Below, piece after piece: positions 3,997 through 19,700 of a stretch of DNA of 64,000 nucleotides. Position numbers and translations under genes: made by a program. The notes under the pieces are model-generated. The model saw only the letters and a program-made list of their open reading frames with translations, searched no databases and was not told the origin of the DNA. Location: the NCBI GenBank assembly GCA_028710985.1, contig JAQTTB010000001.1, positions 457,864-521,863 of the forward strand. Direction: 5' to 3'. This stretch comes from Patescibacteria group bacterium. Its GTDB lineage: Bacteria > Patescibacteriota > Patescibacteriia > JAHJFT01. Position 1 is the stretch's first letter. Each line of letters begins with the position of its first letter.

Positions 3997-4046
3997 TGGC
4001 CGAGCAATAAGCGTAGACGCTCTTTCATAGGCAATCGCCAATCCTT

Positions 4047-4079
4047 GCCGATCAAAAAAAGATCGGCTTTTATTTTTAT
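4047..4079 (+). terminator. Rho-independent terminator
   Basis: GCCGATC-aaaaaaa-GATCGGC followed by TTTTATTTTTAT. Confidence 0.6.
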
Positions 4080-4101
4080 GGTATTTTTAAGGTTGAAAGC
4101 C

Positions 4102-4130
4102 TTGACTTTTTTATTCTTTCGGCGTATAAC
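4102..4130 (+). promoter_or_regulatory. Sigma-70-like promoter TTGACT-N17-TATAAC
   Basis: Read directly; followed by AAGGAGG RBS 8 nt before ATG 4173. Confidence 0.5.
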
Positions 4131-4172
4131 CAAATATCTTGTACTTTAAAATATTTTAAGGAGGTAAAGAAC

Positions 4173-5642
4173 ATGAACGCTAACGATATGACGCATGAGA
4201 ACGAGCGTACTGGTCGGCTTCCCAAATATCCTGTTTCCGAAAGCGCTTTTGATTTGGCAAAGAGGCATGGCGGCATTGCCACAACGCCCGAAGAGGCGCT
4301 CCGCGAGCTCGGCGTGAGGAAAGTCTACTGCGAAACCAGGGCTTTTTACACGCTGGTCGCCGAGAAGGAATATGCCGAGCTTTGTTCAATCAGCCATAAT
4401 CTAATGCGCGAGTATCCCGGTTACATCTTTGCCGATCATCTCGATCGGATGCGCCGGATGATCAATGGTCACGAGCTGCTCACTCGCGGCGAACTGGGGT
4501 TTGTGAAATCCCGCGCCGAGCAATTTATTGCCGCCAAGGTTCCGCCGATATTCAATCCGGATCTTTACGGATATTCCTATTACACGGTTTATCCTCTTGA
4601 TTCCGTGGAAAAGGGCGTGACGATCATGCGGCTTTTTCCTTCGGTTGACTTTATTATCCAGTTCGCGATCGGTATGTTCGAACTGCGCCGAACGGCAATT
4701 GCCGCCCGCCTTAAGAGCAAGGGCGGGTTCTCCCCCTCGGCTTTGCTGATACAGCCGACTACCGTCAGCGACGTATACAGGTTTAGAAGTCGGGCTTTTC
4801 ACAAGCCGAAGCAAATCAATCCGTTTCTGATTCGCGAAACGCTTTCCTACGTCAAGGAGCACTTTAAGTTTCAAGACGGGGATCGCGCGAGTTACGTATC
4901 CGAACGGCAATGGAAAATCTTCCTTCACCTGGAGGAAGCCATGTCCCGGATGCCGTTTGTTCGCGAATACGAGACCTGGAACGGCGACACGGATGTCGTT
5001 CTTGAAAGGTGCTGGTATCTCCGCTTCAAGTCCGCAGACATTCTGAAGATTATCCGCGCGCGCAAGGACGCTATGCCCTTTCCGCCGCGCGACCGGGATC
5101 GGCAGATCTGGAAGCAGTTCAATATGCTGTTTCCGAAAATCTGCCCGGATCTTCAGGATATCGCCGCACGCCAACGCGCCGAACAGATACTTGAATTGGA
5201 GGGTCGTTTTGAGCGCGTCGAGTCGGTTGACGATCTGTGCGGTTTGCCGGACTGGATCTTCACCAAGGAGCCTTGGCGTTCTCGGTTCATGCCAAAGCTC
5301 GTCGGCCTCTTTGAAAGCGCTTGCGAATATCTAGCGCGGGAATCGTCGGAGTCGATTTTTCTCGCAACTACGGAAATTTCCGAGCGCGTCCATATTCCAT
5401 CCGTCGTCCTCTACCGACAGCCATTCAAGCAGGTCTTGAGTGCGGTGCGGCTCCGGACGGTACGCGAGATGGATGACCGGACTTTCATACTTGTTTTCTG
5501 CGGCGAGAGCAACCGACACCGCAAAGCAAGTATTGCCTGCTCCAGGTTCTATGAGTTGGATTCATCTTCGCGCGCCCTGCGCCAATATCTCCGGCACCGA
5601 TCCCAGCAGCTTCATAGTTCTCTCTCTGCTTCTTTCGATTAG
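4173..5642 (+). CDS. Hypothetical protein (489 aa), no recognisable domain
   Basis: Long ORF with strong promoter, RBS and terminator signals. Confidence 0.55.
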   Translation: MNANDMTHENERTGRLPKYPVSESAFDLAKRHGGIATTPEEALRELGVRKVYCETRAFYTLVAEKEYAELCSISHNLMREYPGYIFADHLDRMRRMINGHELLTRGELGFVKSRAEQFIAAKVPPIFNPDLYGYSYYTVYPLDSVEKGVTIMRLFPSVDFIIQFAIGMFELRRTAIAARLKSKGGFSPSALLIQPTTVSDVYRFRSRAFHKPKQINPFLIRETLSYVKEHFKFQDGDRASYVSERQWKIFLHLEEAMSRMPFVREYETWNGDTDVVLERCWYLRFKSADILKIIRARKDAMPFPPRDRDRQIWKQFNMLFPKICPDLQDIAARQRAEQILELEGRFERVESVDDLCGLPDWIFTKEPWRSRFMPKLVGLFESACEYLARESSESIFLATTEISERVHIPSVVLYRQPFKQVLSAVRLRTVREMDDRTFILVFCGESNRHRKASIACSRFYELDSSSRALRQYLRHRSQQLHSSLSASFD

Positions 5643-5649
5643 CCGCTGC

Positions 5650-5680
5650 GCTCCGACCTCGTGTCGGAGCCTTTTTTTAT
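5650..5680 (+). terminator. Rho-independent terminator
   Basis: GCTCCGAC-ctcgt-GTCGGAGC followed by CTTTTTTTATT. Confidence 0.6.
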
Positions 5681-5734
5681 TCAGCCGGCGCTTGCCCATT
5701 TTACGCAAAAATTATATAATAACCGTAGAATTTT

Positions 5735-5977
5735 ATGATTGCACAGATAATCATCGGAATCGTCATTATCCTGGTCGGTGCTTTTATGGTCATTAAAACC
5801 GAAACCTTTTACGGCATCTTCGGACCAATTGCCTGGGCGGACGCCAAATTCGGCGGTACGCGATTTTTTTACAAAGTTCTGGGCATCGTATTCTGCATCA
5901 TCGGATTTATGGTTGTCACCAATATGTGGCAGGGAATTATTACTTGGATTTTCGGATCATTACTTGGAAAAAAATAA
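5735..5977 (+). CDS. Small membrane protein (2 predicted TM helices)
   Basis: Hydrophobic 80-aa ORF. Confidence 0.4.
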   Translation: MIAQIIIGIVIILVGAFMVIKTETFYGIFGPIAWADAKFGGTRFFYKVLGIVFCIIGFMVVTNMWQGIITWIFGSLLGKK

Positions 5978-5990
5978 TTTTTTTATAGAT

Positions 5991-6542
5991 ATGTCAATCA
6001 TCCCATCAACCAGCGAACTTATTAACGCCGCCACTCTTCTTGCCCAGGGTGCGATTCGCCAGGGCATGAAGGTTGCGGATTTAGGTTGCGGCAGCACCGG
6101 CCATTTCGTGTTTGCCGCGTCCGAACTTGTGGGAAAAGACGGAATCGTCTACGCGGTTGATATTCAAAAAGGAGCGCTTGATGGCGTTGAAAGCCGCACG
6201 CGGCTTGAGGGTGCCGAGAATGTCAAAACCGTGTGGTCGGATATTGAAATGTTCGGCGCGACTCGTATCCCGGCGGCGAGTCTTGACCTCGTTCTTCTTG
6301 TCAATAATCTTTTTTTGGCAAAAAACAAAAGCGAACTGGCGCGCGAAATCATCCGCCTGATGGTTCCTGGCGGCCGGCTCATTGTCGCAGACTGGAAGAT
6401 GACGCAGGCGCCGTTTGGCCCGTCCGTGAATGATCGCATTTCGCCCGAAGAAGCAAAGAACGTATTTTCTAAGGCCGGGATGAGGCTGGAAAAAGAATTT
6501 GAAGCCGGCAAATATCATTACGGCTTAGTATTTGTAAAATGA
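5991..6542 (+). CDS. Class I SAM-dependent methyltransferase
   Basis: Motif I VADLGCGSTGHF, motif II IVYAVD, post-I LDLVLLV; start ATG 5991 (upstream part of ORF-track 5778 lacks homology). Confidence 0.7.
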   Translation: MSIIPSTSELINAATLLAQGAIRQGMKVADLGCGSTGHFVFAASELVGKDGIVYAVDIQKGALDGVESRTRLEGAENVKTVWSDIEMFGATRIPAASLDLVLLVNNLFLAKNKSELAREIIRLMVPGGRLIVADWKMTQAPFGPSVNDRISPEEAKNVFSKAGMRLEKEFEAGKYHYGLVFVK

Positions 6543-6608
6543 ATCATGAATCAGGAATCATGAATTAAGAATATCGCGCATCGCACGTCCCTGATTCCCG
6601 ATTCTACG
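6541..6608. repeat. REP-like intergenic repeat GAATCATGAATCAGGAATCATGAAT ... CTGATTCCCGATTC
   Basis: Starts inside the stop codon of the methyltransferase; same family as 1471-1525 and 34182-34253. Confidence 0.5.
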
Positions 6609-6647
6609 CATTGGTAAAAATTTACTATAAAATAAATAACATCCAAT

Positions 6648-7064
6648 ATGTTTGATATCAGCCCTTTATTAAAAATTTCGTATTGGTTTGACCGCCGGCC
6701 GCCGGCGCTTGAGCCGGCCGCCCAGCAGGTATTTTTTTATGTCTTTGCCGGGCTGGTCGCGCTCTCGGTTGTCATTTCCATAATTATAAAAAAGAAAAAA
6801 GAAGAAGATCCGTGGGTTGCCAAAGGGTTTCAAAAAGTTTCATCGTGGTGCCTCACTATGGGCGTGGCCGGCCTGATGATTTTCTTTTTTAGTTTTGAAC
6901 AGGTGCCGATTCTTTCCATGAGAATTTGGTTTGCGGGCTGGGCGGTTTGGGCGGTCATTTGGATGATCTTTATAATCATGTTTTTCGTTAAAACCATTCC
7001 GGCGGAAAAATCCAGGATAAAAGAAAAAGAGCGGCTGGAAAAATATCTGCCCGGGAAAAAGTGA
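6648..7064 (+). CDS. Hypothetical integral membrane protein
   Basis: 138-aa ORF with 3-4 hydrophobic helices. Confidence 0.45.
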   Translation: MFDISPLLKISYWFDRRPPALEPAAQQVFFYVFAGLVALSVVISIIIKKKKEEDPWVAKGFQKVSSWCLTMGVAGLMIFFFSFEQVPILSMRIWFAGWAVWAVIWMIFIIMFFVKTIPAEKSRIKEKERLEKYLPGKK

Positions 7065-7126
7065 GAATGTTGAATAACTATTCAACATTCTCATCCCGAC
7101 CCCGAGCGAAGTCGAGGGGAGGGATC
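7063..7126. repeat. Composite structured element A: AT-rich 14-bp perfect hairpin + ATCCCGA + GC hairpin (CCCC-GAGCGAAGTCGA-GGGG) + AGGGATC
   Basis: GAGAATGTTGAATA/TATTCAACATTCTC hairpin then ATCCCGA...AGGGATC; same architecture at 60275-60338. Confidence 0.5.
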
Positions 7127-7145
7127 CCTTATCTTCCGCAAGAGA

Positions 7146-7544
7146 GTGTTGGTTGATTATAAAAACCACATCAAAAATATGATCAAGCGGCTCGGCGAAT
7201 GGGGGGAGGACATTGCGGCCGCTTTTTTAGTTAAAAAAGGATATACCCTGGTTGAGCAAAACTGGCGCTGTGAACTCGGGGAGATTGACTTGGTCATGAA
7301 ATTCAATGATAAGGGAAATGAGGTTTATGCTTTCATCGAAGTCAAGGCTCGCGCCGATACGGAATTTGGATATCCGGAAGAGGCAGTCACCCGGTCAAAG
7401 CTTAATCATCTCGTCGCCGCCTGCGAGGCATATTCATACGAGCATAATTTAAAATCAATCTGGCAAATCGATATCGTGGCGATTATCGGAACGCCATCGT
7501 ACGGGATTAAAGATATCAGGCATTTTTCTAAGTTGGAGCTATAA
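7146..7544 (+). CDS. YraN-family (UPF0102) endonuclease
   Basis: GEDIAAAFLVKKGYTLVEQNWRCELGEIDLVM...EVKAR matches the YraN/UPF0102 core; the true start may be ATG 7179. Confidence 0.7.
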   Translation: MLVDYKNHIKNMIKRLGEWGEDIAAAFLVKKGYTLVEQNWRCELGEIDLVMKFNDKGNEVYAFIEVKARADTEFGYPEEAVTRSKLNHLVAACEAYSYEHNLKSIWQIDIVAIIGTPSYGIKDIRHFSKLEL

Positions 7545-7598
7545 TTTTGAATTTCTATGGGCCTTGCGTCTATTTTTGCCGCATGCTATACTCAACGC

Positions 7599-7630
7599 AG
7601 ACTAGTCTCAATAGACTAGTTAATTTTTTA
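7599..7630 (+). terminator. Tandem AGACTAGTCT palindromes forming a hairpin followed by TAATTTTTTA; terminator candidate after yraN
   Basis: AGACTAGTCT-caat-AGACTAGT + T-run. Confidence 0.4.
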
Positions 7631-7640
7631 CCAAGAATAT

Positions 7641-7687
7641 GAAATCGTTGATTTTTCAACGATTTCACCCTGAGCGAAGTGAAGGGT
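7641..7687 (+). promoter_or_regulatory. Two adjacent hairpins in the nusA upstream region (11-bp GAAATCGTTGA/TCAACGATTTC, then ACCCT-GAGCGAAGTGA-AGGGT)
   Basis: Read directly; second loop identical to the loop of element A. Confidence 0.3.
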
Positions 7688-7715
7688 CTTATGCCTAAAC
7701 AGAAAGTAAATTGCT

Positions 7716-7724
7716 TGCTATAAT
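7716..7724 (+). promoter_or_regulatory. Extended -10 promoter element TGcTATAAT upstream of nusA
   Basis: TGCTATAAT 35 nt before ATG 7759. Confidence 0.4.
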
Positions 7725-7758
7725 TAGATAAAACTTAGTAATACTTATACCTAAAAAT

Positions 7759-9120
7759 ATGCCATCAGCAATCACCCAGGCGATCAAGCAGATTTGTGAG
7801 GAAAAAAACATTTCCTACGAAGCCGTGCTTGAGACAATTGAGGCGGCCATGGGCGCCGCGTACCGCAAGGATTTCGGCAATAAAATGCAGAATATCCGCG
7901 TTAATTTTGATCCCGAAACCGCCGGGATCAAGGTTTTTGACGTTAAAGAAGTGGTGGAGGATCAGGAAATCGAGGAACTTGAAGAAGGCGAAGCCGAAGC
8001 GGCCGAAGAGCCAAAGGGCAAAGAGGTCAAAGAAAAAGAAGAGGAAAAAGAAAAGCCCGTTGAGCCCAAAGAGGGCGAAGTGGCGGAAGGCGAGGAAGCG
8101 AAATTCAATCCCAAGACCCAGATTATGATTTCCGACGCCAAGGATATTAAAGCCGACGCGAAAATCGGGGACGAGATACGCGTTGAGCTTGAGGTTCCGG
8201 GAGAATTCGGCCGCATGGCCGCGCAGACCGCGAAACAGGTCATCACGCAAAAATTGCGCGAAGCCGAGCGTGAAAATGTTTATAAAGAGTATAAAGATCG
8301 CGAAGGTGAAGTCATCAACGCAGTTGTCCAGCGCCGCGAAGGCCGCATCGTGCTTATTGATCTCGGCCGTATCTCAGGCATCATGAGGCCCGAAGATCAG
8401 GTGCCCAGTGAATTTTATCGCCCGGGCGAGCGCATTAAGGTTTTTGTCGCCAAAGTTGAAATGACCACCAAGGGTCCGGAGATACTTCTTTCGCGTTCGC
8501 ATCCCGAGATGGTACGGCGCCTCTTTGAACTAGAAATTCCGGAGATTGCCTCCGGCGCGGTTGAGATTAAAGCTATCGCCCGCGAAGCCGGATCGCGCAC
8601 CAAAGTCGCGGTAACCACGCGCGAAGAAAATGTTGATCCAATCGGCTCCTGCATCGGTCAGCGCGGCACCCGTATCCAGACAATTATCAGCGAACTCGGC
8701 GGAGAAAAGATTGATATCATTGAATGGAAAGAAGATGCCGAAACATTTATCATGAATTCGCTTTCACCGGCCAAGACCGCCCGGGTTACTTTGGATCAAG
8801 AAGGGCACAGCGCGCTTGTGTCCGTGGCACCGGATCAGCTTTCGCTCGCCATCGGCCGCGGCGGACAAAATGTGCGCCTGGCCGCGCGCCTCACCAGCTG
8901 GAAGATTAATGTTGCCGAAGAAGGTGGTGGCGTGATTGCGGATTCGGAAAAAGGCGAAATCGCGGCTGAAGCCGAAAAGCCGGCCGAAGAAGCCGCGCCG
9001 GTCGCAGAGGTCAAACCCGCCGAGGAAATTGCCCCGGTTGAATCCAAGAAAAAGAAAGAACCAAAAAAGAAGAAAGTGAAAAAAGAGAAAAAAGAAGATA
9101 AAAAAGAAGGCAAAGAATAA
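7759..9120 (+). CDS. nusA: Transcription termination/antitermination factor NusA (with acidic/Lys-rich insertion and K-rich C-terminal tail)
   Basis: S1 and KH regions present: ...VVQRREGRIVLIDLGRISGIMRPEDQVP...PIGSCIGQRGTRIQ...AIGRGGQNVRLAARLTSWKINV. Confidence 0.9.
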   Translation: MPSAITQAIKQICEEKNISYEAVLETIEAAMGAAYRKDFGNKMQNIRVNFDPETAGIKVFDVKEVVEDQEIEELEEGEAEAAEEPKGKEVKEKEEEKEKPVEPKEGEVAEGEEAKFNPKTQIMISDAKDIKADAKIGDEIRVELEVPGEFGRMAAQTAKQVITQKLREAERENVYKEYKDREGEVINAVVQRREGRIVLIDLGRISGIMRPEDQVPSEFYRPGERIKVFVAKVEMTTKGPEILLSRSHPEMVRRLFELEIPEIASGAVEIKAIAREAGSRTKVAVTTREENVDPIGSCIGQRGTRIQTIISELGGEKIDIIEWKEDAETFIMNSLSPAKTARVTLDQEGHSALVSVAPDQLSLAIGRGGQNVRLAARLTSWKINVAEEGGGVIADSEKGEIAAEAEKPAEEAAPVAEVKPAEEIAPVESKKKKEPKKKKVKKEKKEDKKEGKE

Positions 9121-9132
9121 CCAGAAAATTTT

Positions 9133-9894
9133 ATGGAAATTTTTCAGACCATCCTTTATCAGCCAATATTTAATCTTTTGGTTTTGATTTACGATTTTAT
9201 TCCGGGCCACGACATCGGGCTCGTGATAATCGTGCTCACGCTCGCCATCAAGGTTATTCTCTACCCCTTGTCCCGCCAGTCAATAAAATCGCAAAAAGCC
9301 ATGACCGAGCTTCAGCCCAAGATTGACGAGATCAAAGAGAAATATAAAGACAAAAAAGATGAGATGGCCAAGGCCATGATGGAGATGTATTCTAGCCAAA
9401 AGGTGAGTCCGTTTTCTTCGTGTCTGCCACTCATTATTCAGTTGCCGATTATTTACGCCCTTTACCGCGTCATGCGCGACGGTTTGAGCTCGACGCATCT
9501 TGACCTGCTTTACGCCTGGGTGCCGAATCCCGGCCACATCAGTTCAATGTTTTTGGGAGAAATTGACTTGGCCGTGCCGAGTATTTTTCTCGCCGTGCTT
9601 GCCGGCATCGCTCAATTCTGGCAAGCCCGGATGATGAGCGTGCGCCAGCCGCCTAAGTCAATTCGCAAAAAAACCGGAGCCATTGACGAGAACCTGCTCG
9701 CTACCATGAACAAGCAAATGGTTTATTTCATGCCCATCATGACGGTGGTGATCGGCGTGTCTCTTCCCGGCGGCCTTGCGCTTTACTGGTTTATCAATAA
9801 TCTTCTCACCATCGGCCAGCAGTATCTGACTTTTGGCAAGAAAAAAACCGCGGCCGCGATTCCGCCGCCGGCTAATCCAACCCCGACCGTATGA
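9133..9894 (+). CDS. yidC: Membrane protein insertase YidC (short Oxa1-type form)
   Basis: ...MTELQPKIDEIKEKYKDKKDEMAKAMMEMY...LPLIIQLPIIYALYRVM... Confidence 0.85.
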   Translation: MEIFQTILYQPIFNLLVLIYDFIPGHDIGLVIIVLTLAIKVILYPLSRQSIKSQKAMTELQPKIDEIKEKYKDKKDEMAKAMMEMYSSQKVSPFSSCLPLIIQLPIIYALYRVMRDGLSSTHLDLLYAWVPNPGHISSMFLGEIDLAVPSIFLAVLAGIAQFWQARMMSVRQPPKSIRKKTGAIDENLLATMNKQMVYFMPIMTVVIGVSLPGGLALYWFINNLLTIGQQYLTFGKKKTAAAIPPPANPTPTV

Positions 9895-10229
9895 TTATCC
9901 CGTGGGAAAAATTAAAAAATTTACCGGTTGAAACCCAGAGCGGCGAACGGCTCGGCCGGATGAGTGGTTTTGATTTATCGAGCGACGGCCAGGACATTAA
10001 AACCTACCGCGTTAAAAGCCGCGGAATAATCAAGGGATTGATGAATGGGGAACTCCTGATCAGCCGTGAGCAGGTCGTGTCAATCAATGACGAACGTTTG
10101 ATCGTTCCCGACGCCCTGGTCACCGAAAAAAACGCGCTTCGGAGCGAAGTCGCGTCGCGCGTCACGGCCGAAAGCGCGCCCGCCACCCAGAGTCGGATTT
10201 CAAGCTCACAAAATTTAAATAATTCTTAA
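9891..10229 (+). CDS. PRC-barrel-like domain protein, translationally coupled to yidC (ATGA overlap)
   Basis: LGRMSGFDLSSDGQDIKTYRVKSRG...LISREQVVSINDERLIVPDALV resembles the PRC-barrel fold. Confidence 0.4.
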   Translation: MIIPWEKLKNLPVETQSGERLGRMSGFDLSSDGQDIKTYRVKSRGIIKGLMNGELLISREQVVSINDERLIVPDALVTEKNALRSEVASRVTAESAPATQSRISSSQNLNNS

Positions 10230-10239
10230 TTAAAATTTT

Positions 10240-10836
10240 ATGAATCAAGTCTTAAAAATTATCATCGTCGCATTGATCGCCGCAATTATTATCGGGGGTG
10301 GTTATTATTTCTGGCAAAAAAATCAAGCAACTCAGTCAACGGCAGGATTAGGAAACACAGCAGCACCGGCTGGGGAGGAGCTGCCCGATCCACTCTTGTA
10401 TTCAACGGCCGGCCTTCCGGTTTCAGTTTCGAAAAATGCAGTATTGTTTGATTACACAGTCGAGCAATTGGAGGGGATGGCAGGGGAATGTGGTTCTCAA
10501 CACGACCCCGATTATTTTGATGAATTGATTTTAAAGTTCGTCGCTGCGGGTGCGACAAAGCATATTTACAACCTTAAATATTCTGATGCGAGCCAGGAGC
10601 CTGACACTTTCGTCATTACCCTGTTGCCTAATGAAGCGGGATACGCTTCCCTTGATCAGTTCAAAAAAGATTTTGATATATGCGCCGCAGGTGGCGATGC
10701 TTATCCCACCATGCTCAGCGAAAATTGGCTTCTTTTTGTAAATTCATGCGGAAGCGGATTTGATGACGGTTCGGGACGACCGATCGGGTGCGAAAAAGTA
10801 CGAGAAATCGTTGAGCCTACATTGAAGTTGAGATAA
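10240..10836 (+). CDS. Membrane-anchored hypothetical protein
   Basis: N-terminal TM helix, 198 aa. Confidence 0.45.
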   Translation: MNQVLKIIIVALIAAIIIGGGYYFWQKNQATQSTAGLGNTAAPAGEELPDPLLYSTAGLPVSVSKNAVLFDYTVEQLEGMAGECGSQHDPDYFDELILKFVAAGATKHIYNLKYSDASQEPDTFVITLLPNEAGYASLDQFKKDFDICAAGGDAYPTMLSENWLLFVNSCGSGFDDGSGRPIGCEKVREIVEPTLKLR

Positions 10837-10857
10837 AAATCAGCGTGCAAAATTAAA

Positions 10858-10950
10858 CCGAAAAAATTTTTCAAGCCATCTCGAAAACACTGGCGTTGAG
10901 AGCCCGGGAATAAAACCGAAGTCGGTTTCCCCGGGTTTTTTGGCCGGAAA
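10858..10950. repeat. Degenerate, internally deleted duplicate of 13592-13800 (5' region of the gene at 13474-14490)
   Basis: cgaaaaaatttttcaagccatctcgaaaacactggcgtt matches cgaaaatttttcaagcaatcttgaaaacactggcgtt; ...cggtttccccgggttttttggccgg matches cggttttttccggggtttttattttttggccgg. Confidence 0.6.
10903..10941 (+). terminator. Nested hairpin (CCCGGGAA ... AAACCGA-ag-TCGGTTT ... CCCCGGG) + TTTTTT
   Basis: Read directly. Confidence 0.45.
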
Positions 10951-10979
10951 AATTAAAAGATTTATTTCGTATTAATCTA

Positions 10980-11007
10980 TTGACAAAATTGGGGATAGCA
11001 CTATGAT
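10980..11007 (+). promoter_or_regulatory. Sigma-70-like promoter TTGACA-N16-TATGAT upstream of the peptide/radical-SAM cassette
   Basis: Read directly; ~140-nt leader contains a long-range inverted repeat TGCTGCTTTGGGTC ... GGCCCAAAAAGCAGCA. Confidence 0.45.
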
Positions 11008-11147
11008 GATCATAGGTCCTTAACATCTAGCCTCAAGTCCTACTTCTCTTGCATTGCTGCTTTGGGTCAATGAAGTTAAACGAAAATTCATGGTGAATTT
11101 TCGGCCCAAAAAGCAGCAGAAGACTGTAGGCGAGAAAGGAGGAAAAA

Positions 11148-11285
11148 GTGAAAAAGCCGCGGAAAAACACCAAGCCAGTCGTGCTCAAGGCCGATGATCG
11201 CGCGAAGGTTCTGGGAAATATTCCCAAACCTGGTCGCGACGTCGCTGACTGCGTTTGCTACACATCGTGCACGCGCTGCACGTAG
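11148..11285 (+). CDS. Putative RiPP precursor peptide, 45 aa, Cys-rich C-terminus (SCIFF/ranthipeptide-like)
   Basis: GTG start 5 nt after GGAGG; translation VKKPRKNTKPVVLKADDRAKVLGNIPKPGRDVADCVCYTSCTRCT*; not in the ORF track (<60 aa); sits directly upstream of the rSAM/SPASM gene. Confidence 0.5.
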   Translation: MKKPRKNTKPVVLKADDRAKVLGNIPKPGRDVADCVCYTSCTRCT

Positions 11286-11296
11286 CCGCAATTGCA

Positions 11297-11339
11297 GTGG
11301 GGGGTGTGGAAAGTAACTCTTCCCACCCCCGCATTTTTA
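11297..11339 (+). terminator. Imperfect GC hairpin + ATTTTTA between peptide and maturase (partial terminator/attenuator candidate)
   Basis: GTGGGGGGTGTGGAAAG-taact-CTTCCCACCCCCGC then ATTTTTAT. Confidence 0.4.
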
Positions 11340-11358
11340 TAGAGAAGGAGAAAATGCT

Positions 11359-12717
11359 ATGCAACTTTCCCGATGGTGCCACACGTTGCATCAAGATGGC
11401 GTTTCGGCGCTGGTGAACGCACTGACTCTTGGAGTAGTGTACATTTCAACCGAGGAACTGCGCGCTTTTATGGAAGCACTGCCCTCATCAGATAATGTTG
11501 GTGAGGTGGGGCTCATAGAAATTCTTACAGCCCAGGGATTATTAGTTGAAAATCAGACTACCGATGAGTTGGTATTCGCAAGAACGCGCGAACGGCTCAG
11601 ATCGGAGATGTCGCTCGAGCTGCTATATTTGCTTGTCACCGACGGTTGCAACCTGCGATGTACCTATTGCTTCGAAGAAACGCCGTCGCTTACGGCCCCA
11701 TTCCATTCGACGCAGATGACTAAGGAAACGGTTATCAGGGCGCTCGATCTATTCGCGAGGATGACGGCACGACACGGCAACCCGGAAAAAAAGAAGGTGA
11801 TTCATCTTTATGGCGGCGAGCCGTTAGCGAACCGCAAGGCGGTATATGAGGCCGTGTTCTATGTTGACGAACTCAAGTCGCGCGGTATTTTGTCCGACAG
11901 CTGTCAGATCGCAATCGTGACCAACGGAGTACTTCTCAAAGAGGAGGACGCACGGCTCTTCGCGACACACAACGTTACGGTTGGACTCTCGATTGATGGC
12001 CCAGCATCAGTTACCGATTTTTATAGGATTCCAAAACGCCGAGATGTGCGCGTTACGGAACGCATTACTTCTGCATTTCGCCTGCTCAAGCGTCATAATG
12101 TGAGTATCGGGCTGTCGGTAACCTTGACGCCCCAAGCGATTGAACGCTTCGATGAATTCGTCGCCTTCTTCACGGACGGGGAATTTCGCGAGGTGGACGG
12201 TGTTAGTCTGAATTTACTTCATTTTTCGCCCAATCTGATATTGCCTGACGATTATTATCACGCGGCCGTAGAGTGCCAGATAAAATTCTTTAAACGGTTT
12301 CGTGAGGCCGGACTCTACGAGGAGCGGGTGATGCGTAAAGTTCGTGCATTCGTGGATCAAGAACCGATGTACGCAGATTGCGGCGTGGTAGGCCGACAGC
12401 TCGTCGTCGCTCCGGATGGACGCATTGGCGTCTGTCAGGACTTCGTCAAGCCAAGAACTTACTTTCCGCGCTCTGTGTACGACGTGGAACATCACGATCT
12501 CCTTGAGGCGCTCTTCGCGGACTGGCGCGATCGTTCACCGTTTTTCATGCCACAGTGCAGGGATTGTTTAGCCATTAGCATCTGCGGCGGCGGGTGTCCC
12601 GCGAGTGCCGAGCTTAAAACCGGTAGTCGGTATAATCTCGACGAACGCGCTTGCCATCATAGTAAGCAAATACTTGAATGGTTGGTCTGGGATGCGTACG
12701 CAAAGCTCGACGGCTAG
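11359..12717 (+). CDS. Radical SAM/SPASM-domain peptide maturase (N-terminal RRE-like region, CxxxCxxC, C-terminal SPASM cysteines)
   Basis: VTDGCNLRCTYCFEE; C-terminal CGVVGRQLVVAPDGRIGVCQDF...CRDCLAISICGGGCPAS; AAGGAG RBS 8 nt upstream. Confidence 0.85.
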   Translation: MQLSRWCHTLHQDGVSALVNALTLGVVYISTEELRAFMEALPSSDNVGEVGLIEILTAQGLLVENQTTDELVFARTRERLRSEMSLELLYLLVTDGCNLRCTYCFEETPSLTAPFHSTQMTKETVIRALDLFARMTARHGNPEKKKVIHLYGGEPLANRKAVYEAVFYVDELKSRGILSDSCQIAIVTNGVLLKEEDARLFATHNVTVGLSIDGPASVTDFYRIPKRRDVRVTERITSAFRLLKRHNVSIGLSVTLTPQAIERFDEFVAFFTDGEFREVDGVSLNLLHFSPNLILPDDYYHAAVECQIKFFKRFREAGLYEERVMRKVRAFVDQEPMYADCGVVGRQLVVAPDGRIGVCQDFVKPRTYFPRSVYDVEHHDLLEALFADWRDRSPFFMPQCRDCLAISICGGGCPASAELKTGSRYNLDERACHHSKQILEWLVWDAYAKLDG

Positions 12718-12761
12718 CGGCTATCAGGGGGTTGAGAATGCTCAAAATATTTGCTACAATA

Positions 12762-12797
12762 GGGAAGATGAGAAACGCTTATCTTCCCTAATTTTTT
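12762..12797 (+). terminator. Terminator hairpin GGGAAGAT-N11-ATCTTCCC + TAATTTTTTA, overlapped by the TTGAGA-N17-TACAAT promoter of the next gene
   Basis: Read directly. Confidence 0.5.
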
Positions 12798-12799
12798 AT

Positions 12800-13540
12800 A
12801 TGAACTATCCTCACATTACTTTTCGCAAAAGCGCAAAAAAAGATTTTGAAACTTTACGCGCCTTCACGAAAGATGCCGAATATGATAATGGCAGAAATTT
12901 GAATTGGGCAGTATTCAAAAAATATCCCCGTCTAAAAATATATTTTGATAAAGATAAACATTTCAAAATCAAAAATGAAAAAGTATTGAGCAATTTTATT
13001 GATGAAACATATCGTGGTGAACAGATAAATATGAATCGTGCCTTGGCCCAGCACAAAAAACGTTGGGAAAAAATTGCTTTGGATTATTTTTCACTCGTTG
13101 ACGAACTCTTCAGCGGACGCAAGTGGCCGCGGGGTAAATATGTCGCCTTAGGCACGATCTGGGGCATGTATCCGCGTTTTCTGGAAGACAAAACATTCCA
13201 GATTCCATTTCGCCATCGTACCCCCGGGTATATTTCAGTTGTGATTGCGCATGAACTACTCCATTTTATGTTTTATGACTATTTTTACGCTCATTATCCA
13301 AAATATCGTGGTTCCGGAAATAATTTTATTGTCTGGCATATCTCAGAAATTTTTAATACCGTCGTTCAGAACTCACCGGCGTGGCTTAGCCGTTTTAAAA
13401 TAAAATCACTTGGATATCCAGAACACAAAAAAATTGTCGCGCGCATAGGCCGTACCCTGTACTGCAGTAATACATGGGATCTGAACGCGCTGGTGGACAA
13501 AATAATAAAAGAAGTGCAGAATCAGAAAATAAACAAATAG
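12800..13540 (+). CDS. Hypothetical protein with an HExxH motif (AHELLHF); possible zincin-like peptidase
   Basis: 246-aa ORF; AT-rich and K/N/Y/F-rich, unlike the adjacent GC-rich rSAM gene; start ATG 12800 rather than ORF-track 12605. Confidence 0.5.
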   Translation: MNYPHITFRKSAKKDFETLRAFTKDAEYDNGRNLNWAVFKKYPRLKIYFDKDKHFKIKNEKVLSNFIDETYRGEQINMNRALAQHKKRWEKIALDYFSLVDELFSGRKWPRGKYVALGTIWGMYPRFLEDKTFQIPFRHRTPGYISVVIAHELLHFMFYDYFYAHYPKYRGSGNNFIVWHISEIFNTVVQNSPAWLSRFKIKSLGYPEHKKIVARIGRTLYCSNTWDLNALVDKIIKEVQNQKINK

Positions 13541-14490
13541 TCCCGACTGATGTTTTGCTTCGCGAAACAAAAAACTCTGTGCAAAATGATTCCTCGAAAA
13601 TTTTTCAAGCAATCTTGAAAACACTGGCGTTTTTTGACATTTTTGATTATCCGCTCACTTCATTGGAAATCTGGCGGTATCTGTACGCGCCGGGTGAGCA
13701 AAAAATTTCCCTGAATCAAATTATTGAAGCCCTGGGAAATCCGGAACTAAAAGCCAAAATCGGTTTTTTCCGGGGTTTTTATTTTTTGGCCGGCAAGCAG
13801 GATTCGGTTGAACTGCGCCGCGAGCGGAACGCAATTGCCGAAAAAAAATTAATCCGCCTCCGGCCATACGCAAAATATCTCAACCGGCTCGGCGCGGTCT
13901 CCGGAGTCGCGGTGGCTAACACTCTTGCCATAAAACACTCACGGCCCGAATCGGATATTGATTTATTCATCATCGCGCGTCCGCATGCGGTCTGGAGCGC
14001 ACGGTTCTGGGCCATTCTGCCGCTTTATTTTTTCGGCGGACGTCCCCGGCCGGGAAGCATGCGCGATAAATTCTGTTTGAGTTTTCTGGTTGATGAAAAT
14101 CATCTTGATATTCTGCCGTGGAAAATGGAGCAGGATATTTATTATATATACTGGCTCGCGACGCTCATGCCCGTCTCCGGTCCGGAAGTGTTTGCGAATT
14201 TTTTTGAAAAAAATAAATGGATAAATAAATATTTGCCGAATTTTTTCCCGCCCGAGATGAGCGCGCGCGGGGAGCGGCGCCCGGCCTCGCGCCTTCCGTG
14301 TTTCGGCGGACGCATCTTAAAAGCGATTCAGCTTTTTGTGATGCCAGCCGCGCTCAAGGAGGCGGCGGCGCGGCATCACACGGACGTTATAATTTCCGAC
14401 ACTGTTCTCAAATTCCACCTTAATGACCGCCGAAGTGAATATGAAAAATGCTACCAGAAACGAGTTGCGAAAATTATTGATACAGTATAA
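13474..14490 (+). CDS. Hypothetical protein with nucleotidyltransferase-like (GS...SDIDL) segment; start uncertain (TTG 13555 or GTG 13579 possible)
   Basis: ...GAVSGVAVANTLAIKHSRPESDIDLFIIARPH...; the 5' part is duplicated at 10858-10950. Confidence 0.45.
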   Translation: MGSERAGGQNNKRSAESENKQIVPTDVLLRETKNSVQNDSSKIFQAILKTLAFFDIFDYPLTSLEIWRYLYAPGEQKISLNQIIEALGNPELKAKIGFFRGFYFLAGKQDSVELRRERNAIAEKKLIRLRPYAKYLNRLGAVSGVAVANTLAIKHSRPESDIDLFIIARPHAVWSARFWAILPLYFFGGRPRPGSMRDKFCLSFLVDENHLDILPWKMEQDIYYIYWLATLMPVSGPEVFANFFEKNKWINKYLPNFFPPEMSARGERRPASRLPCFGGRILKAIQLFVMPAALKEAAARHHTDVIISDTVLKFHLNDRRSEYEKCYQKRVAKIIDTV

Positions 14491-14709
14491 AGCCCTTCCT
14501 ACAATGTGTTGGGCAATTATAATCGTTTTCTAGCATCACTCTTGTTTGCTTTCAGCAGGACATACTTTTGTAACCAAAAGTATGCAAAAGTTTCGGGGGC
14601 GCAAATTCGCTCTCGAATATAGGTAATGATTTACCGATTTAATCCACGCTCAGTTGCGCCCCCGAACCCCAGGGCACTGGTCAAGACGTTCTTAAAGGGT
14701 TCTCTCCCT

Positions 14710-14729
14710 CCTGCCTGCCGGCAGGCAGG
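14710..14729. repeat. Perfect 20-bp palindrome CCTGCCTGCCGGCAGGCAGG (copy 2), nested in a larger inverted repeat TCTCTCCCTC...GGGAGAGGCAGAGAGGG
   Basis: Read directly. Confidence 0.9.
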
Positions 14730-14796
14730 TTGTAAAGGGAGAGGCAGAGAGGGATTTTACGTCGTCGGTTAGGGCAGGGGTTAGGTAAGAAATAAT

Positions 14797-16122
14797 ATGT
14801 TACAACGCATCGCAAAATATCTCCTCTGGTTCTGGGTTTTTCTCATACCGTGGCAGACGCGGTGGATTATCGTTGATCCGATAATCGGCGGAGCGGCGTG
14901 GGAATATGGGCGGGTTAGCCTTTATGCGGGTGATATTATTTTTATAGCCCTTGCCGTCATTGCGGCATTTTTGGCTAAATCCCAAATCTCTCTGCCCGAG
15001 GCGGATGCGCCTCTGGTGCAAAATCTCAAATCTCAAAAATTTGGATTGAATTATATTTTAATTTTGATTTTTTTTCTGTGGGCCGGGGCGACTTTGATTT
15101 GGGTGGATGACCGGTTGGTCGGATTTTATTATGTTTTGCGTTTTAGCCAGATTGTTGCGCTTTGGTTTATCATAAAAATTATCAAACCAAATTTAAGTTT
15201 ATTTTTGTCCGCGCTGATTGCCTCCGGCGCGGTTCAGGCCGGGCTCGCGATCGCGCAGTTCGGATTTCAGTATTCTCCGGCCGATAAATGGCTCGGACTC
15301 GCCTCGCACGCGCCCTGGGAGCTTGGTCCGGCCGTGGTGGAAAGCGCGGCCGGCCGGTTTCTGCGCGCCTACGGCAGTTTGCCGCATCCCAACATGCTCG
15401 GCGGATTTCTGGTTTTTTGCCTGATCGCGGCCGCGCATTATATCAGCCGCGTTTCCGGACGAGTGGCGCTCTGGCTTGTCCTGCCCGTCCTCGTAATGTC
15501 GCAGGCCCTGGTCTGGAGCTTTTCGCGCTCTGCCTGGCTTGGACTCGCCTTCGGTTTTGCGGTTCTTATTCTAGGTTCGCGCGGCGTAAGAGATACACAG
15601 AAAAAATTCATCGTGATATTTGTTTTAATTTCGTCGGTTTTTCTCGCGAACGCCGCGCTCGCGCCCGATCTCCTGGGCTCGCGGCTCGCGGCCGCCGGCC
15701 GGCTTGAAGCCCAGTCAATTGCCGAGCGGGGAGCGCAGGCCGGACTCGCGCTTGAAGCCGCGAAATCCCATCTTCTGGGCCTCGGCCCGGGAAATTACAC
15801 GGTTTGGCTCATGCAAAAGTTTCCCAATTTGGCGGGCTATGCCTATCAGCCGGCCCACAATCTTTATCTTCTGGCATTGGCCGAACTCGGAATTCCGGGG
15901 GTAATAATTCTTGCCGCCCTGGCCGCCATGTTTTTGAAATTTTGCCGAAAAAATCTGCTTTGCCTTTCCCTGCTTGCGGCCGCCGGCATAATCAGCCTGT
16001 TTGACCACTATTTTTGGTCCAGCTACAGCGGAATTTTGCTCCTCGGCCTTGCCCTCATCCTGCCTGGGGTTAATGGGTTTTCAATTCACGCGCATTCTTG
16101 GTATAATAATCGCGAGGAATAA
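14797..16122 (+). CDS. O-antigen ligase-like (Wzy_C family) polytopic membrane protein
   Basis: Multi-TM protein with the ...SRSAWLGLAFGFAVLILG... segment typical of O-antigen ligase/O-oligosaccharyltransferase families. Confidence 0.55.
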   Translation: MLQRIAKYLLWFWVFLIPWQTRWIIVDPIIGGAAWEYGRVSLYAGDIIFIALAVIAAFLAKSQISLPEADAPLVQNLKSQKFGLNYILILIFFLWAGATLIWVDDRLVGFYYVLRFSQIVALWFIIKIIKPNLSLFLSALIASGAVQAGLAIAQFGFQYSPADKWLGLASHAPWELGPAVVESAAGRFLRAYGSLPHPNMLGGFLVFCLIAAAHYISRVSGRVALWLVLPVLVMSQALVWSFSRSAWLGLAFGFAVLILGSRGVRDTQKKFIVIFVLISSVFLANAALAPDLLGSRLAAAGRLEAQSIAERGAQAGLALEAAKSHLLGLGPGNYTVWLMQKFPNLAGYAYQPAHNLYLLALAELGIPGVIILAALAAMFLKFCRKNLLCLSLLAAAGIISLFDHYFWSSYSGILLLGLALILPGVNGFSIHAHSWYNNREE

Positions 16123-16140: not shown

Positions 16141-16743
16141 ATGGATAGCCAAACTCGAAAGCTCTCCAGAGGCGAGAAGTGGAGCTTATTTGTATTAAGC
16201 GCCGCGACTTTGTGTATCGTAATTTTGGCTTCATGGCAGATGAAAAATACGATTTTTTCACCGTTTGTCCAGACGCCAAGTGAGGATACGCGCGCTCTGT
16301 TTGATAATTCACTGCAGCTTGAGGAATTGCGCGGCAAGGACAGCGATAGCGATGGCTTAAGCGACTTTGACGAGCTCTATGTCCACAATACGAGTCCGTA
16401 TCTTCCGGATACTGATTCCGACGGTATGAGCGATTCCGCGGAAATCACTGCCGGTAAAGACCCAAACTGTCCCGAGGGCCAGGAATGCTATATTGACCAG
16501 ACCGGCGGCACCTCGACCGCGGCCGGAGAAACCGAAGAAGTGAATTTGACGGAAAGCGAAAAGGCCGATCTTATGCTCCAGCTTCCGGCCGATGAGATCC
16601 GCGAGCTTCTGAAAAATGCCGGCGTGCCCGAGGAAACGCTCAACCAGCTTACTGACGACGAACTCAAACAGATGGTTGCCGATGTTCTTGCCGAAGAGGG
16701 CGGCTCATTGCCGGCGACCGGCTCAACTTCAACCCAAGAGTAA
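16141..16743 (+). CDS. Membrane-anchored protein with thrombospondin-type-3-like Ca-binding repeats (DSDSDGLSDFDE, DTDSDGMSD)
   Basis: N-terminal TM helix and acidic D-x-D-x-D-G repeats. Confidence 0.5.
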   Translation: MDSQTRKLSRGEKWSLFVLSAATLCIVILASWQMKNTIFSPFVQTPSEDTRALFDNSLQLEELRGKDSDSDGLSDFDELYVHNTSPYLPDTDSDGMSDSAEITAGKDPNCPEGQECYIDQTGGTSTAAGETEEVNLTESEKADLMLQLPADEIRELLKNAGVPEETLNQLTDDELKQMVADVLAEEGGSLPATGSTSTQE

Positions 16744-16747
16744 ATTT

Positions 16748-19700
16748 ATGATGCGTTTAAAACAACAAACAATGCGGACAATCGTTGCGCTTGTTTGTTT
16801 TGTTTTTGTTTGCAATCTCCTGCTCGTGCCGATTCATTACGCGCGCGCTCAACTGGTAGTAACGGATCCGGTTACCGGCCAGGCAGTCACCATAAAAAAT
16901 GTAAAAGATTTTATAAAGACCCTGCTTGTCGGCGTGGCCGGCGTTGCCGTAATTAACGCAGCAAATTATTTCGCACAAAAGCTCGCCTACGACGCCGCCG
17001 TAGCTTTGGTTTCCGGCGGTAAGGGCCAGATGCCGCTTTTTTCCACCAAGGGCTGGGGCGATTATTTTAAAGACGCATCGCTCGGCGCGGTCGGCGAATT
17101 TGTGGGCACTTTGTCCGAAGGATTTGAGGGCCTAGATCTCTGTAATCCCGGTCCGCCCGGCCTTGTGGCAAAACTTCAGACCAGTTTGGTCAAACCATAT
17201 ATTCCGGTGGGCGAAGGCCCGGAGCCAAAATGCGAGTGGAGCAATATTTCCGAAAACTGGACCGAGTTTACCGAAGACTTTACCACCGGCGAGGTTCTTC
17301 AGCGCTCGGGCGTGATGTTTGAACCCGGCCAGTCGCCGCTTTCCATTACCCTTGAAGCCAGCCGCAATCTTTCGGTTCAGGTTTATGAAATGGAAAAATT
17401 AAAAACCCTGGAACGCGAGGAGGGGGAAGGATTTTTGGCCAAGACCGGCATTATTTCCGGCGAGGTCCAGACTCCAGCCCAGGTCATCGCCCAAAAAGCC
17501 AAAGACCTTTCAAAGAGCGGCGAAGAATCCCAGCAAACTAATGTCCAGATGATGGGTTCGGCGCTCGGCGCCGGCGCGACGCAGATTCTCACTTCCGCGC
17601 TTGGCACATTCGTGAATACCCTGGCCGGAAAATTATTGGAAAAAATATTTAACAAGGGTTTAATTAGTTTTCAGAAAAAGGGAAAAAATACCGGCGCACT
17701 CATTAATCCTGAATTTTCGCTCGTCGGCACGCGCGAGGTGGCGCAGGAGATGCAGTCCGATCTGATTACCCCGCCGATTAAAGAGGCCGAGGTTTTTGAT
17801 CAGGTGACTGATTTTTCGGTCTGCCCCTCCCAGTTCGCCAGCCCGAATAACTGCGTAATTGACCAGGGATTTTCCGAAGCCCTGCGGCGGGAACAATCCG
17901 GTACCCCGCTCTCGGTCAAAGAGGCGATTAATCAGGGCCTGCTCCGCGGCGACTGGCCGCTTATTTCCTCGTATGACCGCGCCCGCAACACGGATATTTT
18001 TTGCTACACCTACGGATATTGCTATTCAAATTTAGTCAAACTTCGCAAGGCGCGCATCGTCCCGATCGGTTGGGAAATTGCCGCGCAAAAAAGCGGCGCC
18101 TCGGCTTCGCAGATAACCTTGAGCCAGGCCATGGATGCTTTCTATGACTGCGGAACCGATGCCGATGGCCGGCCGGTTGTGGATTCCGAACATCCGTGGT
18201 GCCACCTCGTCGATCCAAACTGGATTATCAAATATCCGCTTACCCAGTGCCGCGCTTCGGTCTACGGTTCAACCCTGCTCACCGCCGAAAACAGCCTGCG
18301 TTCCGAAACCTGCGTTGATTCGCCGACTTGCATTGCGGTTGATGACGGCGGATCCTGTGTCGGGGGTTGGGGATACTGCACCCGCGAAAAAAATACCTGG
18401 CATTTTGACGGCGACCAGTGTCCGGCGCGTTACGAGTCCTGCATCGCGCTTGAAGACCGGAGCGGCAATCAGGTTTCGTATTTATTAAATACCGTAAATT
18501 ACGGCGCCTGCACTTCGGAAAATGTTGGCTGTCGCTGGTACGCGCGCGAAAAGGCCGGCGACAACTGGACCGCGACCGCAAGTTATAATTCCACGGATAA
18601 AACCATGGTCGCGACCGCGGGCGCCATTTATTTAAACAAAAACGCGGCCGAATGTTCGGCTTCGGACGCCGGCTGCACGGAAATGATCCGTGCCACGGCG
18701 ACCGGAGCGACTTTGAATATTCTGCCCAATCCGAGTTTTGAAACCGCGTCCGCCGAAAATCCGGCCATGCCCGAGAACTGGGTTGCCGCCCGCGATAATT
18801 CCAAATACACCAGCGCGGCAACTACCCTGGACGCCACGGGGGACAAATCTTACGACGGGGTCGCGGCGGTTTCGCCCGGCACCGGCTTAGCCGCCGAAGT
18901 CAAACTCAATGCTTCAAGATTTTACACATTCTCTTTTTACGCGCGGACTTCCAGCCGCGCCACGCTTCTCGCCGGTGTTTCAGTCCTGAAGAGCGATCGT
19001 GTCAAAGCCGATCTCACGCCATATTATTTTTCTGGAACCAATTGCACGCGCGGCACCCAATTTGGCGAAGGCGGGGTAAATGAATCAGTTTATTTTAATC
19101 AGATTGCACCGCCCACCGAATACGCGCGCTATTCCTGCACCTTTACCACTCCGGTTGCCGCGGCTTCGCCCAAGGGATATTTTATCGGCCAGATATTTCT
19201 CTATAGCCAGGACGGCACCTGGATTGACGCCGTCCAGCTTGAAGAATCCGAAACCGTAACCGCGTTTCATGAAGGGATTTCCAGCGGAGCCGGGAGTGTT
19301 TATCTTAAAAAACCGCCCGAATATCTGGGATGCACCGGCGCCTCAACCGATCCGGCCGAATGTTCCAATTATCTGCGCCAATGCCTGGCATCGGATGTCG
19401 GCTGTTCAATGTATTATCCAACAAACGGCGATCCGGCGCTTGCCGCGGTCGCGACCGGCGAGAATATTTGTCCGGCCGAATGCGTCGGCTACGACACCTT
19501 CCGCGAAGAGCCGAGTCAGTGGACCGCCGCGGCCAAATTCCCGCTTTACTTAATTCCGGATACCGCCGAGATGTGTGAAGCGAGTGTCGTGGGCTGCGAT
19601 GAATTTACCAACTTAGATGCCGCTGAAGCTGGTGGGGAATCCAAAAATTATTTCACTTCAATCCGCTCCTGCCAGAAGCCGGCCGCGGACAGCGAAACGT

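Follow-up and report, generated by a model that had tools for sequence, protein, structure and literature searches.

We analysed a 64,000-nt stretch of the genome of a Patescibacteria group bacterium (contig JAQTTB010000001.1, positions 457,864 to 521,863 of the forward strand; hereafter the window), in which a cassette encoding a Cys-rich peptide, a radical SAM (rSAM) maturase and an HExxH protein lies between two copies of the start of one gene. The features of this locus all read from the forward strand. A PRC-barrel gene (9891–10229; Pfam PRC, 1.5e-4) is followed by a gene for a 198-aa membrane-anchored protein with no predicted function, which we call p198 (10240–10836), then by the upstream, apparently orphaned copy of the gene start (10845–10950), by the cassette (about 10975 to 13578), by the gene to which the duplicated segment belongs (13579–14490), a conserved Patescibacteria gene with no predicted function that we call the DUF gene, and finally by a Wzy_C/O-antigen-ligase-like gene (14797–16122; Pfam match). 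The window backbone is thus interrupted by 3.35 kb between the PRC stop at 10229 and the DUF start at 13579, a space taken up by p198, the orphaned gene start and the three cassette genes.

The two copies of the gene start resemble each other in two blocks that are collinear and in the same orientation. In the first block, 10845–10897 aligns without gaps to 13579–13631, with 45 of 53 positions identical (84.9%; BLAST E 4e-12 against the whole window), and in the second, 10904–10950 aligns to 13741–13796, with 40 of 46 aligned positions identical and three indels. The 109 nt that separate the blocks downstream (13632–13740) are represented by only 6 nt upstream. The window holds three repeat pairs at E<1e-4, of which this is the strongest. 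A 34-nt core of the first block has exactly two matches in the window at three or fewer mismatches (none in 100 shuffles), and the local score of the second block, 22.5, compares with maxima of 15 among 2000 shuffles and 17 among 414 other slices of the window. Core uniqueness, the window-wide repeat search and the shuffles of the second block together rule out a chance or low-complexity motif, which the original prediction had named as the observation that would overturn its reading of 10858–10950 as a diverged, internally deleted copy of 13592–13800. That reading survives: the similarity is real, 109 nt have been lost between collinear blocks, and only the edges shift, on the left to the start codons at 10845 and 13579 and on the right to 10950 and 13796. 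Further extension upstream of the start codon (10830–10844 against 13564–13578) was rejected as A-rich chance similarity, 13564–13578 being conserved cassette 3′ sequence. An assembly artefact is ruled out by the degenerate state of the repeat and by an independently assembled Logan contig (L001, from SRR22315509) that is 100% identical across window positions 5615–14566. A search of window positions 9000–15000 for tRNAs and known noncoding RNAs gave no Rfam match.

The intact copy (13579–13796) spans codons 1–73 of the DUF gene, provided that the gene is read from the correct start. Start calls disagree, with 13474 given by the longest open reading frame (ORF), 13615 (a TTG) by the deposited 291-aa protein (P0001), and 13579 by our reading. 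The original prediction had taken the gene to run from 13474; GTG 13579 is instead the true start, because the N-termini of homologues align to VQNDSSKIFQAILKTLAFFDIFDYPLT (several begin VSQHDSK... or VQNHDSK...), because the DUF gene of all four relatives described below begins with a GTG right after the stop of the preceding PRC gene, and because ATG 13474 falls within the HExxH gene. The 930 homologues of the DUF protein all come from Patescibacteria-type sources and none has a Pfam domain, although some sources label them predicted nucleotidyltransferases. Counted from GTG 13579, the first upstream block (10845–10897) corresponds to codons 1–17 and begins with a GTG 8 nt past the p198 stop, and the second (10904–10950) corresponds to codons ~55–73. 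The upstream copy reads GTG CAA AAT TAA, followed by the 109-nt loss relative to the gene and by small indels. Since the downstream copy holds the genuine N-terminus and the upstream one meets a stop at codon 4, the upstream copy is a dead, non-functional relic. In every difference that can be polarised against relatives, the functional copy has the conserved state and the relic the changed one, and both copies share states that are absent from distant relatives. The junction at the left edge of the relic, TAAAAAT..GTG, resembles the native PRC-DUF junctions of relatives. The third-position GC content of the DUF gene is 0.43 in the first 218 nt and 0.55 in the rest, a difference of ~2 standard errors between stretches of a gene whose two copies are very similar and whose relic is much decayed. 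Segment 10845–10950 is almost certainly a recombination scar, in which a copy of the opening 218 nt of the DUF gene has been orphaned and is decaying.

The relic may since have acquired a role of its own. Its second block, together with 10898–10903, forms a compact hairpin at 10897–10941 followed by T6, immediately upstream of the cassette promoter. The fold of 10895–10950 has a free energy of -23.3 kcal/mol and a z score of -2.56, against -0.63 for the homologous coding stretch in the intact gene. A terminator for p198 is a plausible reading of this hairpin.

The cassette begins at its left end (10975–11007) with a promoter-like site, TTGACA-16-TATGAT at 10980–11007 (11 of 12 matches in a promoter scan), and DNA conservation among the window and loci L013, L014, L016 and L019 sets in at the -35 box, at about 10975. 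The 140-nt 5′ untranslated region (UTR) of the precursor-peptide gene holds a two-tier stem (11061–11110; RNAalifold, eight loci) in which TTTGGGT...GCCCAAA encloses CGAAAATTCA...TGAATTTTCG, and 11 of its 16 pairs show compensatory changes. The stem matches no Rfam family and may act as the regulatory leader in an operon for a ribosomally synthesized and post-translationally modified peptide (RiPP). The precursor (11148–11285) is a Cys-rich peptide of 45 aa with a conserved leader and a C...CYTSCTRC core, in which C35, C37, C41 and C44 are invariant in an alignment of 11 homologues. The maturase gene (11359–12717; Pfam Radical_SAM, 1.7e-17) encodes a radical SAM/SPASM-type enzyme. Its best NCBIfam match is the FibroRumin rSAM maturase (TIGR04136) at 226.6 bits against a cutoff of 400, with PapB, SCIFF and others weaker, so that FibroRumin is the closest family although this protein is not a member of it, and the score lies below the cutoff of every curated family. 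An rSAM enzyme beside a Cys-rich precursor co-occurs in every complete locus, an arrangement consistent with a radical SAM/SPASM RiPP system.

The third gene (12803–13540) encodes a putative zinc peptidase with an HExxH motif and has the rSAM gene as its neighbour at every cassette locus. A homologue (P0226) matches DUF5700, a putative Zn peptidase family, at 1.3e-5, and the window protein matches DUF3267 weakly, suggesting that it is a putative, remotely zincin-like protein. The rSAM and HExxH genes are separated by a strong terminator-like hairpin of 13 pairs (12760–12790), overlapped by a promoter-like site (12732–12760) whose -10 element is extended. Because of this hairpin and promoter-like site, the peptide and rSAM genes on the one hand and the HExxH gene, possibly with the DUF gene, on the other may be separate transcription units. 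The DUF gene starts 38 nt past the HExxH gene and is probably read through from, or co-transcribed with, it, because the gap holds only a hairpin without a T-run. That hairpin, a palindrome, makes up with its tail a conserved 3′ feature of the cassette at 13552–13578 (TGTTTTGCTTCGCGAAACAAAAAACTCT), and position 13578 ± 2 is where the similarity to L014, L006 and L019 breaks off. The original prediction had also seen a compositional mosaic in the cassette, a GC-rich rSAM gene beside an AT-rich HExxH gene, as a sign of mixed origin. This interpretation fails: the HExxH gene lies 3–17 GC points below its rSAM partner in 17 of 17 loci (at least 8 points in 16 of them) in hosts that range from about 33% to 60% GC, the window rSAM gene (52% GC) matches its flanks (51%), and the trio is always found together.

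That the locus once lacked the cassette is indicated by four relatives (L002–L005), the contigs with the closest available DUF homologues (50–55% identity). Their gene order is methyltransferase, UPF0102, NusA, YidC, PRC-barrel, DUF, Wzy_C, a protein of ~196 aa and a giant protein, and the PRC gene ends only 2–28 nt before the DUF start, with neither the cassette nor p198 in between. The PRC-barrel gene is therefore the conserved left neighbour of DUF and the Wzy_C gene its conserved right neighbour, and the ancestral arrangement is a PRC-barrel gene followed directly by the DUF gene. The original prediction had expected p198 to abut the DUF homologue in genomes without the cassette. This was not found; the PRC-barrel gene abuts DUF instead. 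L002–L005 have no p198 homologue, and homologues at 60–65% identity occur in unrelated contexts (L078–L081). Because its homologues sit in unrelated neighbourhoods, p198 is a second variable gene rather than an ancestral neighbour, and the PRC/DUF junction is an insertion hotspot that here holds two variable units, p198 and the cassette. Farther downstream in the window, 16616–25582 encodes a 2988-aa Cys-rich secreted-type protein, whose position downstream of Wzy_C is kept in all four relatives (2900–3020 aa).

When the rSAM protein was used as a query, the trio turned up in a further 13 independent contexts whose flanks were usable, and also on several contigs that were truncated or duplicates; in none of them does it stand beside DUF, p198 or PRC. 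Across loci, identities are 45–83% for the peptide, 44–82% for the rSAM protein and 33–76% for the HExxH protein, with HExxH homologues at 70–76% identity common. The four empty-site relatives and the many unrelated contexts bear out the view that the ~2.6-kb block is an inserted cassette. With three genes, a promoter, a structured 5′ UTR and a 3′ hairpin, it is a self-contained unit that moves horizontally. Where it is cut differs between loci, and its ragged ends retain pieces of earlier flanks: the conserved 3′ flank runs on (AACTTTTAATTACATCCG...) in other loci, the window version is cut after AACTCT, and that of L007 ends within the final codons of HExxH. Peptide, rSAM and HExxH are the only genes in the cassette, which has no recombinase gene. 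No cassette homologue was found in IMG/VR contigs (which gave only distant rSAMs, at 33% identity or less), INPHARED phages or PLSDB plasmids, and a phage or plasmid carrier was rejected on this ground. An element of ~120 nt, …TATCYGGTTACGGCTTTT.T.CAAAAGCCTCCACCCA.ATTT…, occurs between gene units in three copies each in L014 (200–400, 2983–3160 and 3880–4070) and L006 (6170–6360, 6880–7020 and 7766–7920), with 85–92% identity between the two loci. After the cassette, a portion of this element is also present in L019, and its opening bases are present in the window.

Bracketing repeats are a recurrent property of the cassette. Direct repeats at E<1e-4 flank it in 7 of 14 independent loci, the window included, whereas 0.04 would be expected from a pseudo-cassette slid to shifted positions along the same loci. 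The repeats are locus-specific, 31–348 nt long and drawn from local sequence. They include 87–93 nt of an intergenic region at 90–97% identity in L007, 98 nt (97%) within the 5′ region of a SpoU methylase gene in L019, where the relic keeps its own N-terminus, 98 nt (98%) covering the last 20 codons and half the terminator of a small gene in L088, and 348 nt (89%) in a 390-nt intergenic region in L014. In L087 the 3′ end of a histidine-kinase gene is present in three copies, in an array (5436–9441) that runs histidine kinase, cassette, kinase 3′ relic, BRO-N gene, kinase 3′ relic and response regulator; a two-component operon thus holds two stacked cargos, and after each of them the last ~100–140 nt of the kinase are repeated. 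In L010 an ORF for a C-terminal rSAM fragment (355–729) lies upstream of the HExxH gene and is chimeric: its 407–636 segment shares 95% identity with another, distantly related rSAM gene (3864–5240) of that contig. Other cargo carries the same kind of scar: in L010 a second copy of the 5′ end of a methyltransferase gene (181 nt; 1686–1866 against 7834–8014) lies 6 kb upstream of the gene, with its boundary 1 nt ahead of the start codon, and repeats bracket an HD gene in L006 and a Ham1-like gene in L082. The L082 cassette itself was not counted as bracketed, as it lies inside one copy of the repeat that brackets the neighbouring Ham1-like gene. We also rejected the rule that boundaries always coincide with gene termini, which holds for the window, L010 and L087 and fails for L019 and L088. 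No Rfam family matched the repeat segments of nine loci.

Tyrosine recombinase genes adjoin the right side of the cassette in L019 (3174–3673) and L024 (2863–3837 and 6062–6757). The L019 gene is co-oriented with the orphaned SpoU 5′ relic and overlaps its start; the two L024 recombinases are paralogues that flank a nucleotidyltransferase/HEPN-like pair at a distance of 3 kb from each other. No tyrosine recombinase was found in the window by tblastn with two queries, the L019 and L024 proteins, a search that did not include serine recombinases, and no recombinase was found up to about 6 kb away at five further loci with repeats.

The window contains a second case of the same kind, in which the alleles involved can be told apart. 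The second-strongest repeat in the window (1080–1139 against 1411–1470) brackets a 90-aa GIY-YIG gene (1144–1416). Its upstream copy belongs to a complete tRNA-Leu(GAG) (1051–1136; acceptor GCCGGGA/TCCCGGC, T-stem GGGAG/CTCCC), and its downstream copy (1411–1470) is an orphan 3′ half of a tRNA-Leu whose T-arm and acceptor strand are identical to those of the tRNA-Leu(GAG) of L003. The orphan differs from the working tRNA by compensated changes. Because the orphan equals the allele of the relatives and the working tRNA is different but self-consistent, the orphan is the native allele, and the working tRNA is foreign, brought in together with the GIY-YIG gene in place of the native 5′ half. The repeat at the tRNA-Leu site pairs an incoming homologue with a native relic and is not a duplication made on the spot. 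No recombinase was found at this site. A small ferredoxin gene (1580–1771) lies between the orphan half and a tRNA-Val(TAC), within 1470–1849, a further rearrangement; the tRNA-Leu and tRNA-Val genes are 1 nt apart in relatives L002 and L003. The third repeat pair of the window is of another type, a 30-nt inverted repeat (43519–43548 and 51740–51769; 93% complementary) with arms 8 kb apart.

The best explanation for the locus as a whole, and one that we consider likely, is that the relic was left behind as the cassette came between p198 and DUF. As for how this took place, one homologous crossover combined with one illegitimate join is a route about which we are evenly divided. Two haplotypes, PRC-p198-DUF and PRC-cassette-DUF, would have recombined through a homologous crossover inside DUF or a conserved flank and an illegitimate join at DUF +218 beside the left end of the cassette. 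The outcome would be p198 and the cassette stacked in tandem, a single intact DUF gene and a scrap of gene end between the two cargos. The scrap would then have decayed through the stop at codon 4, the 109-nt deletion and small indels, and its hairpin and T-run probably now end p198 transcription. Such homology-facilitated illegitimate recombination (HFIR) has been described for naturally transformable bacteria. We favour it because the repeats are local and of variable length, the cassette ends are ragged and hold scraps of earlier flanks, a recombinase is mostly lacking, relics occur in arrays, and the tRNA-Leu site pairs a native with a foreign copy. It would also explain why one boundary falls at a start codon, as a simple intergenic insertion in one parent would leave it, why the other boundary is arbitrary, and why the relic junction is of the native type. 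In agreement with such a process, an orphan fragment repeats part of an anchor gene that is itself kept intact, in the window as in the L087 array, the same locus is empty in L002–L005, and p198 and the cassette are each found elsewhere.

Several observations weigh against this explanation. Neither a cassette-DUF arrangement without the relic nor p198 adjacent to DUF was found among 22 cassette loci and four p198 contexts, so both parental haplotypes are hypothetical. The derived states shared by the two DUF copies, and the placement of all polarisable changes on the relic, fit duplication in situ equally well, and the 97–98% identity of the repeats in L019 and L088 is compatible with duplication on the spot. 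Site-specific recombination contributes in some genomes, as the tyrosine recombinases adjoining the cassette in L019 and L024 attest, and the recombinase search of the window itself consisted of two tblastn queries. With neither parental haplotype found, and with DUF copies so alike that they cannot be polarised, the mechanism is one that we infer.

Among other routes to the same arrangement, the cassette fragment could have been joined at a staggered break or by a template switch, duplicating 218 nt in place and leaving the upstream copy to decay. Such a long de novo target duplication would account for repeats that vary from 31 to 348 nt and are local in sequence, for ragged cassette ends without a recombinase, for the near-identity (97–98%) of several repeat pairs, and for the lineage-specific states shared by the window copies together with the one-sided changes on the relic. 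We nevertheless think it rather unlikely, as the tRNA-Leu copies in the window are clearly different alleles, native and foreign, and as the boundary lies 2 nt or less from a start codon here and 1 nt or less in L010, which is unexpected for random staggered breaks. In L087, moreover, the relic farthest from the kinase gene is the one most similar to it. The original prediction had offered partial target duplication or a recombination scar as alternatives. The scar stands, in the form of a degenerate partial duplicate of a gene 5′ end; the tRNA-Leu case leaves target-site duplication on the spot as the less well supported part.

Site-specific integration by a tyrosine recombinase acting in trans would make the cassette a recombinase-less, cis-mobilisable islet, with the relic as attL, the intact copy as attR, and an attachment site that brings a surrogate 5′ end for the target gene, as dusA-type islands do. 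Islands of this kind typically insert at a gene end and restore the gene (PMC4482086), the MccH47 islet can move although it lacks a recombinase (PMC3191183), and tyrosine recombinase genes adjoin the cassette in L024 and in L019, where the gene overlaps the start of the SpoU relic. The window has the flanking direct repeats and the intact target gene that an integrase island would have, but no recombinase was found by tblastn in its 64 kb, nor up to about 6 kb away at the five other loci with repeats. At least six different targets would require six attachment sites on one small cassette, the ends are ragged rather than precise, and the 5′ half of the working tRNA-Leu is also foreign, which is not what an att-type integration would produce. 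Taken together, these points make integration in trans improbable. Two other classes of element can be set aside: transposon or insertion sequence target-site duplication by the 31–348-nt duplications, the ragged ends and a gene content of only peptide, rSAM and HExxH; and integron gene cassettes because the repeats are local gene ends mostly unrelated between loci, no integrase is present and the cassette has its own promoter.

Slightly less probable still is a tandem duplication of the whole DUF gene, after which the cassette replaced most of the first copy, or its variant, a Campbell-type single crossover of a circle carrying the cassette and a DUF 5′ fragment. In its favour, the two DUF copies are each other's closest relatives, and the Campbell variant yields exactly the topology observed. 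Relatives have a single DUF gene, however, and under the tandem version two separate events would have to meet, by coincidence, precisely at the start codon; the Campbell version requires a circle in which cassette and DUF were already joined, and IMG/VR, INPHARED and PLSDB showed the cassette on no virus, phage or plasmid. Finally, chance or functional convergence of a low-complexity or regulatory motif unrelated by descent, which might be suggested by the A/T-richness, hairpins and T-runs of both segments, has a negligible probability, given two collinear blocks (the first at E 4e-12, the second with a score reached by 0 of 2000 shuffles), a motif found only twice in 64 kb, a reading register kept from the start codon on and no such element in relatives.

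We favour, then, the account in which the relic was left behind as the cassette arrived, and its recurrence raises the question of how widely such events occur. As a speculation in which we place little confidence, Patescibacteria may add cassettes to the ends of conserved genes by a general route that needs no recombinase and leaves duplicates of 30–350 nt, and the RiPP cassette would be among its most successful passengers. DNA uptake combined with one-sided homologous recombination could provide the route, if frequent enough to mobilise small promoter-bearing units; alternatively, an undescribed insertion mechanism with long, variable target duplications could do so. To our knowledge, Patescibacteria are largely without classical mobile elements, and the recurrence of the scar around the cassette, around unrelated single genes and in a second case in the window hints at how their gene content turns over. 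Should the pattern prove to be genome-wide, gene-end orphans could flag recently acquired genes and the order of their acquisition. For the present locus, the analysis dates and locates the horizontal gain of a peptide-biosynthesis cassette in an uncultured bacterium with a reduced genome, names the PRC/DUF junction as an insertion hotspot, shows the HExxH gene as a bona fide member of the RiPP cluster and corrects the annotated start of the DUF gene.

We know of no rSAM/SPASM thioether RiPP family with an obligatory HExxH partner and a structured 5′ UTR. Like the ranthipeptides/SCIFF, sactipeptides and FibroRumin, the present system has a short Cys-rich precursor beside an rSAM maturase; unlike them, its maturase falls below the curated cutoff of every family. 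The literature gave no direct match for this cassette or for direct-repeat-flanked insertions in Patescibacteria, and the individual elements of the scar have counterparts elsewhere. Arrays of orphan gene ends at Rhs and contact-dependent inhibition (CDI) toxin tips and at type VI secretion system (T6SS) effector-immunity loci of Vibrio have been attributed to HFIR (PMC5361080, citing de Vries & Wackernagel 2002 and Prudhomme et al. 2002), and transformation-driven duplication has been documented experimentally in pneumococcus (PMC3784515). As in the Rhs and T6SS arrays, cargo here enters a fixed locus with homology in a conserved gene on one side and without a dedicated recombinase, and the old gene end is pushed aside and kept as a fragment, successive events building arrays such as that of L087. 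The differences are that the cargo consists of a RiPP cassette, or of some unrelated single gene, and not of an alternative tip of the anchor gene, that the anchors are ordinary housekeeping-type genes varying by locus, that the orphan in the window is a 5′ end, and that the hosts are Patescibacteria. The microcin H47 islet of Escherichia coli is likewise a small chromosomal island for a ribosomal peptide, whose flanking direct repeats are extensive and imperfect and which encodes no recombinase, and its RecA-independent excision and integration have been demonstrated experimentally (PMC3191183). The H47 repeats are attachment sites common to strains, however, whereas those of the cassette are target-derived, locus-specific and degenerate. 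Islands at the dusA 5′ end (PMC4482086) and at tRNA genes share insertion at a gene end, a partial duplicate on the far side and an intact gene, but they carry a tyrosine recombinase and have one specific target, whereas the window cassette has none within 64 kb and its relatives occupy many targets. Gene-end orphans, recombinase-less islets with imperfect repeats and dusA islands are therefore already known; what is new is their combination, a small RiPP cassette in Patescibacteria that has entered many targets and is flanked in half of them by target-derived repeats, with the same scar at unrelated single genes, including one in the window itself.

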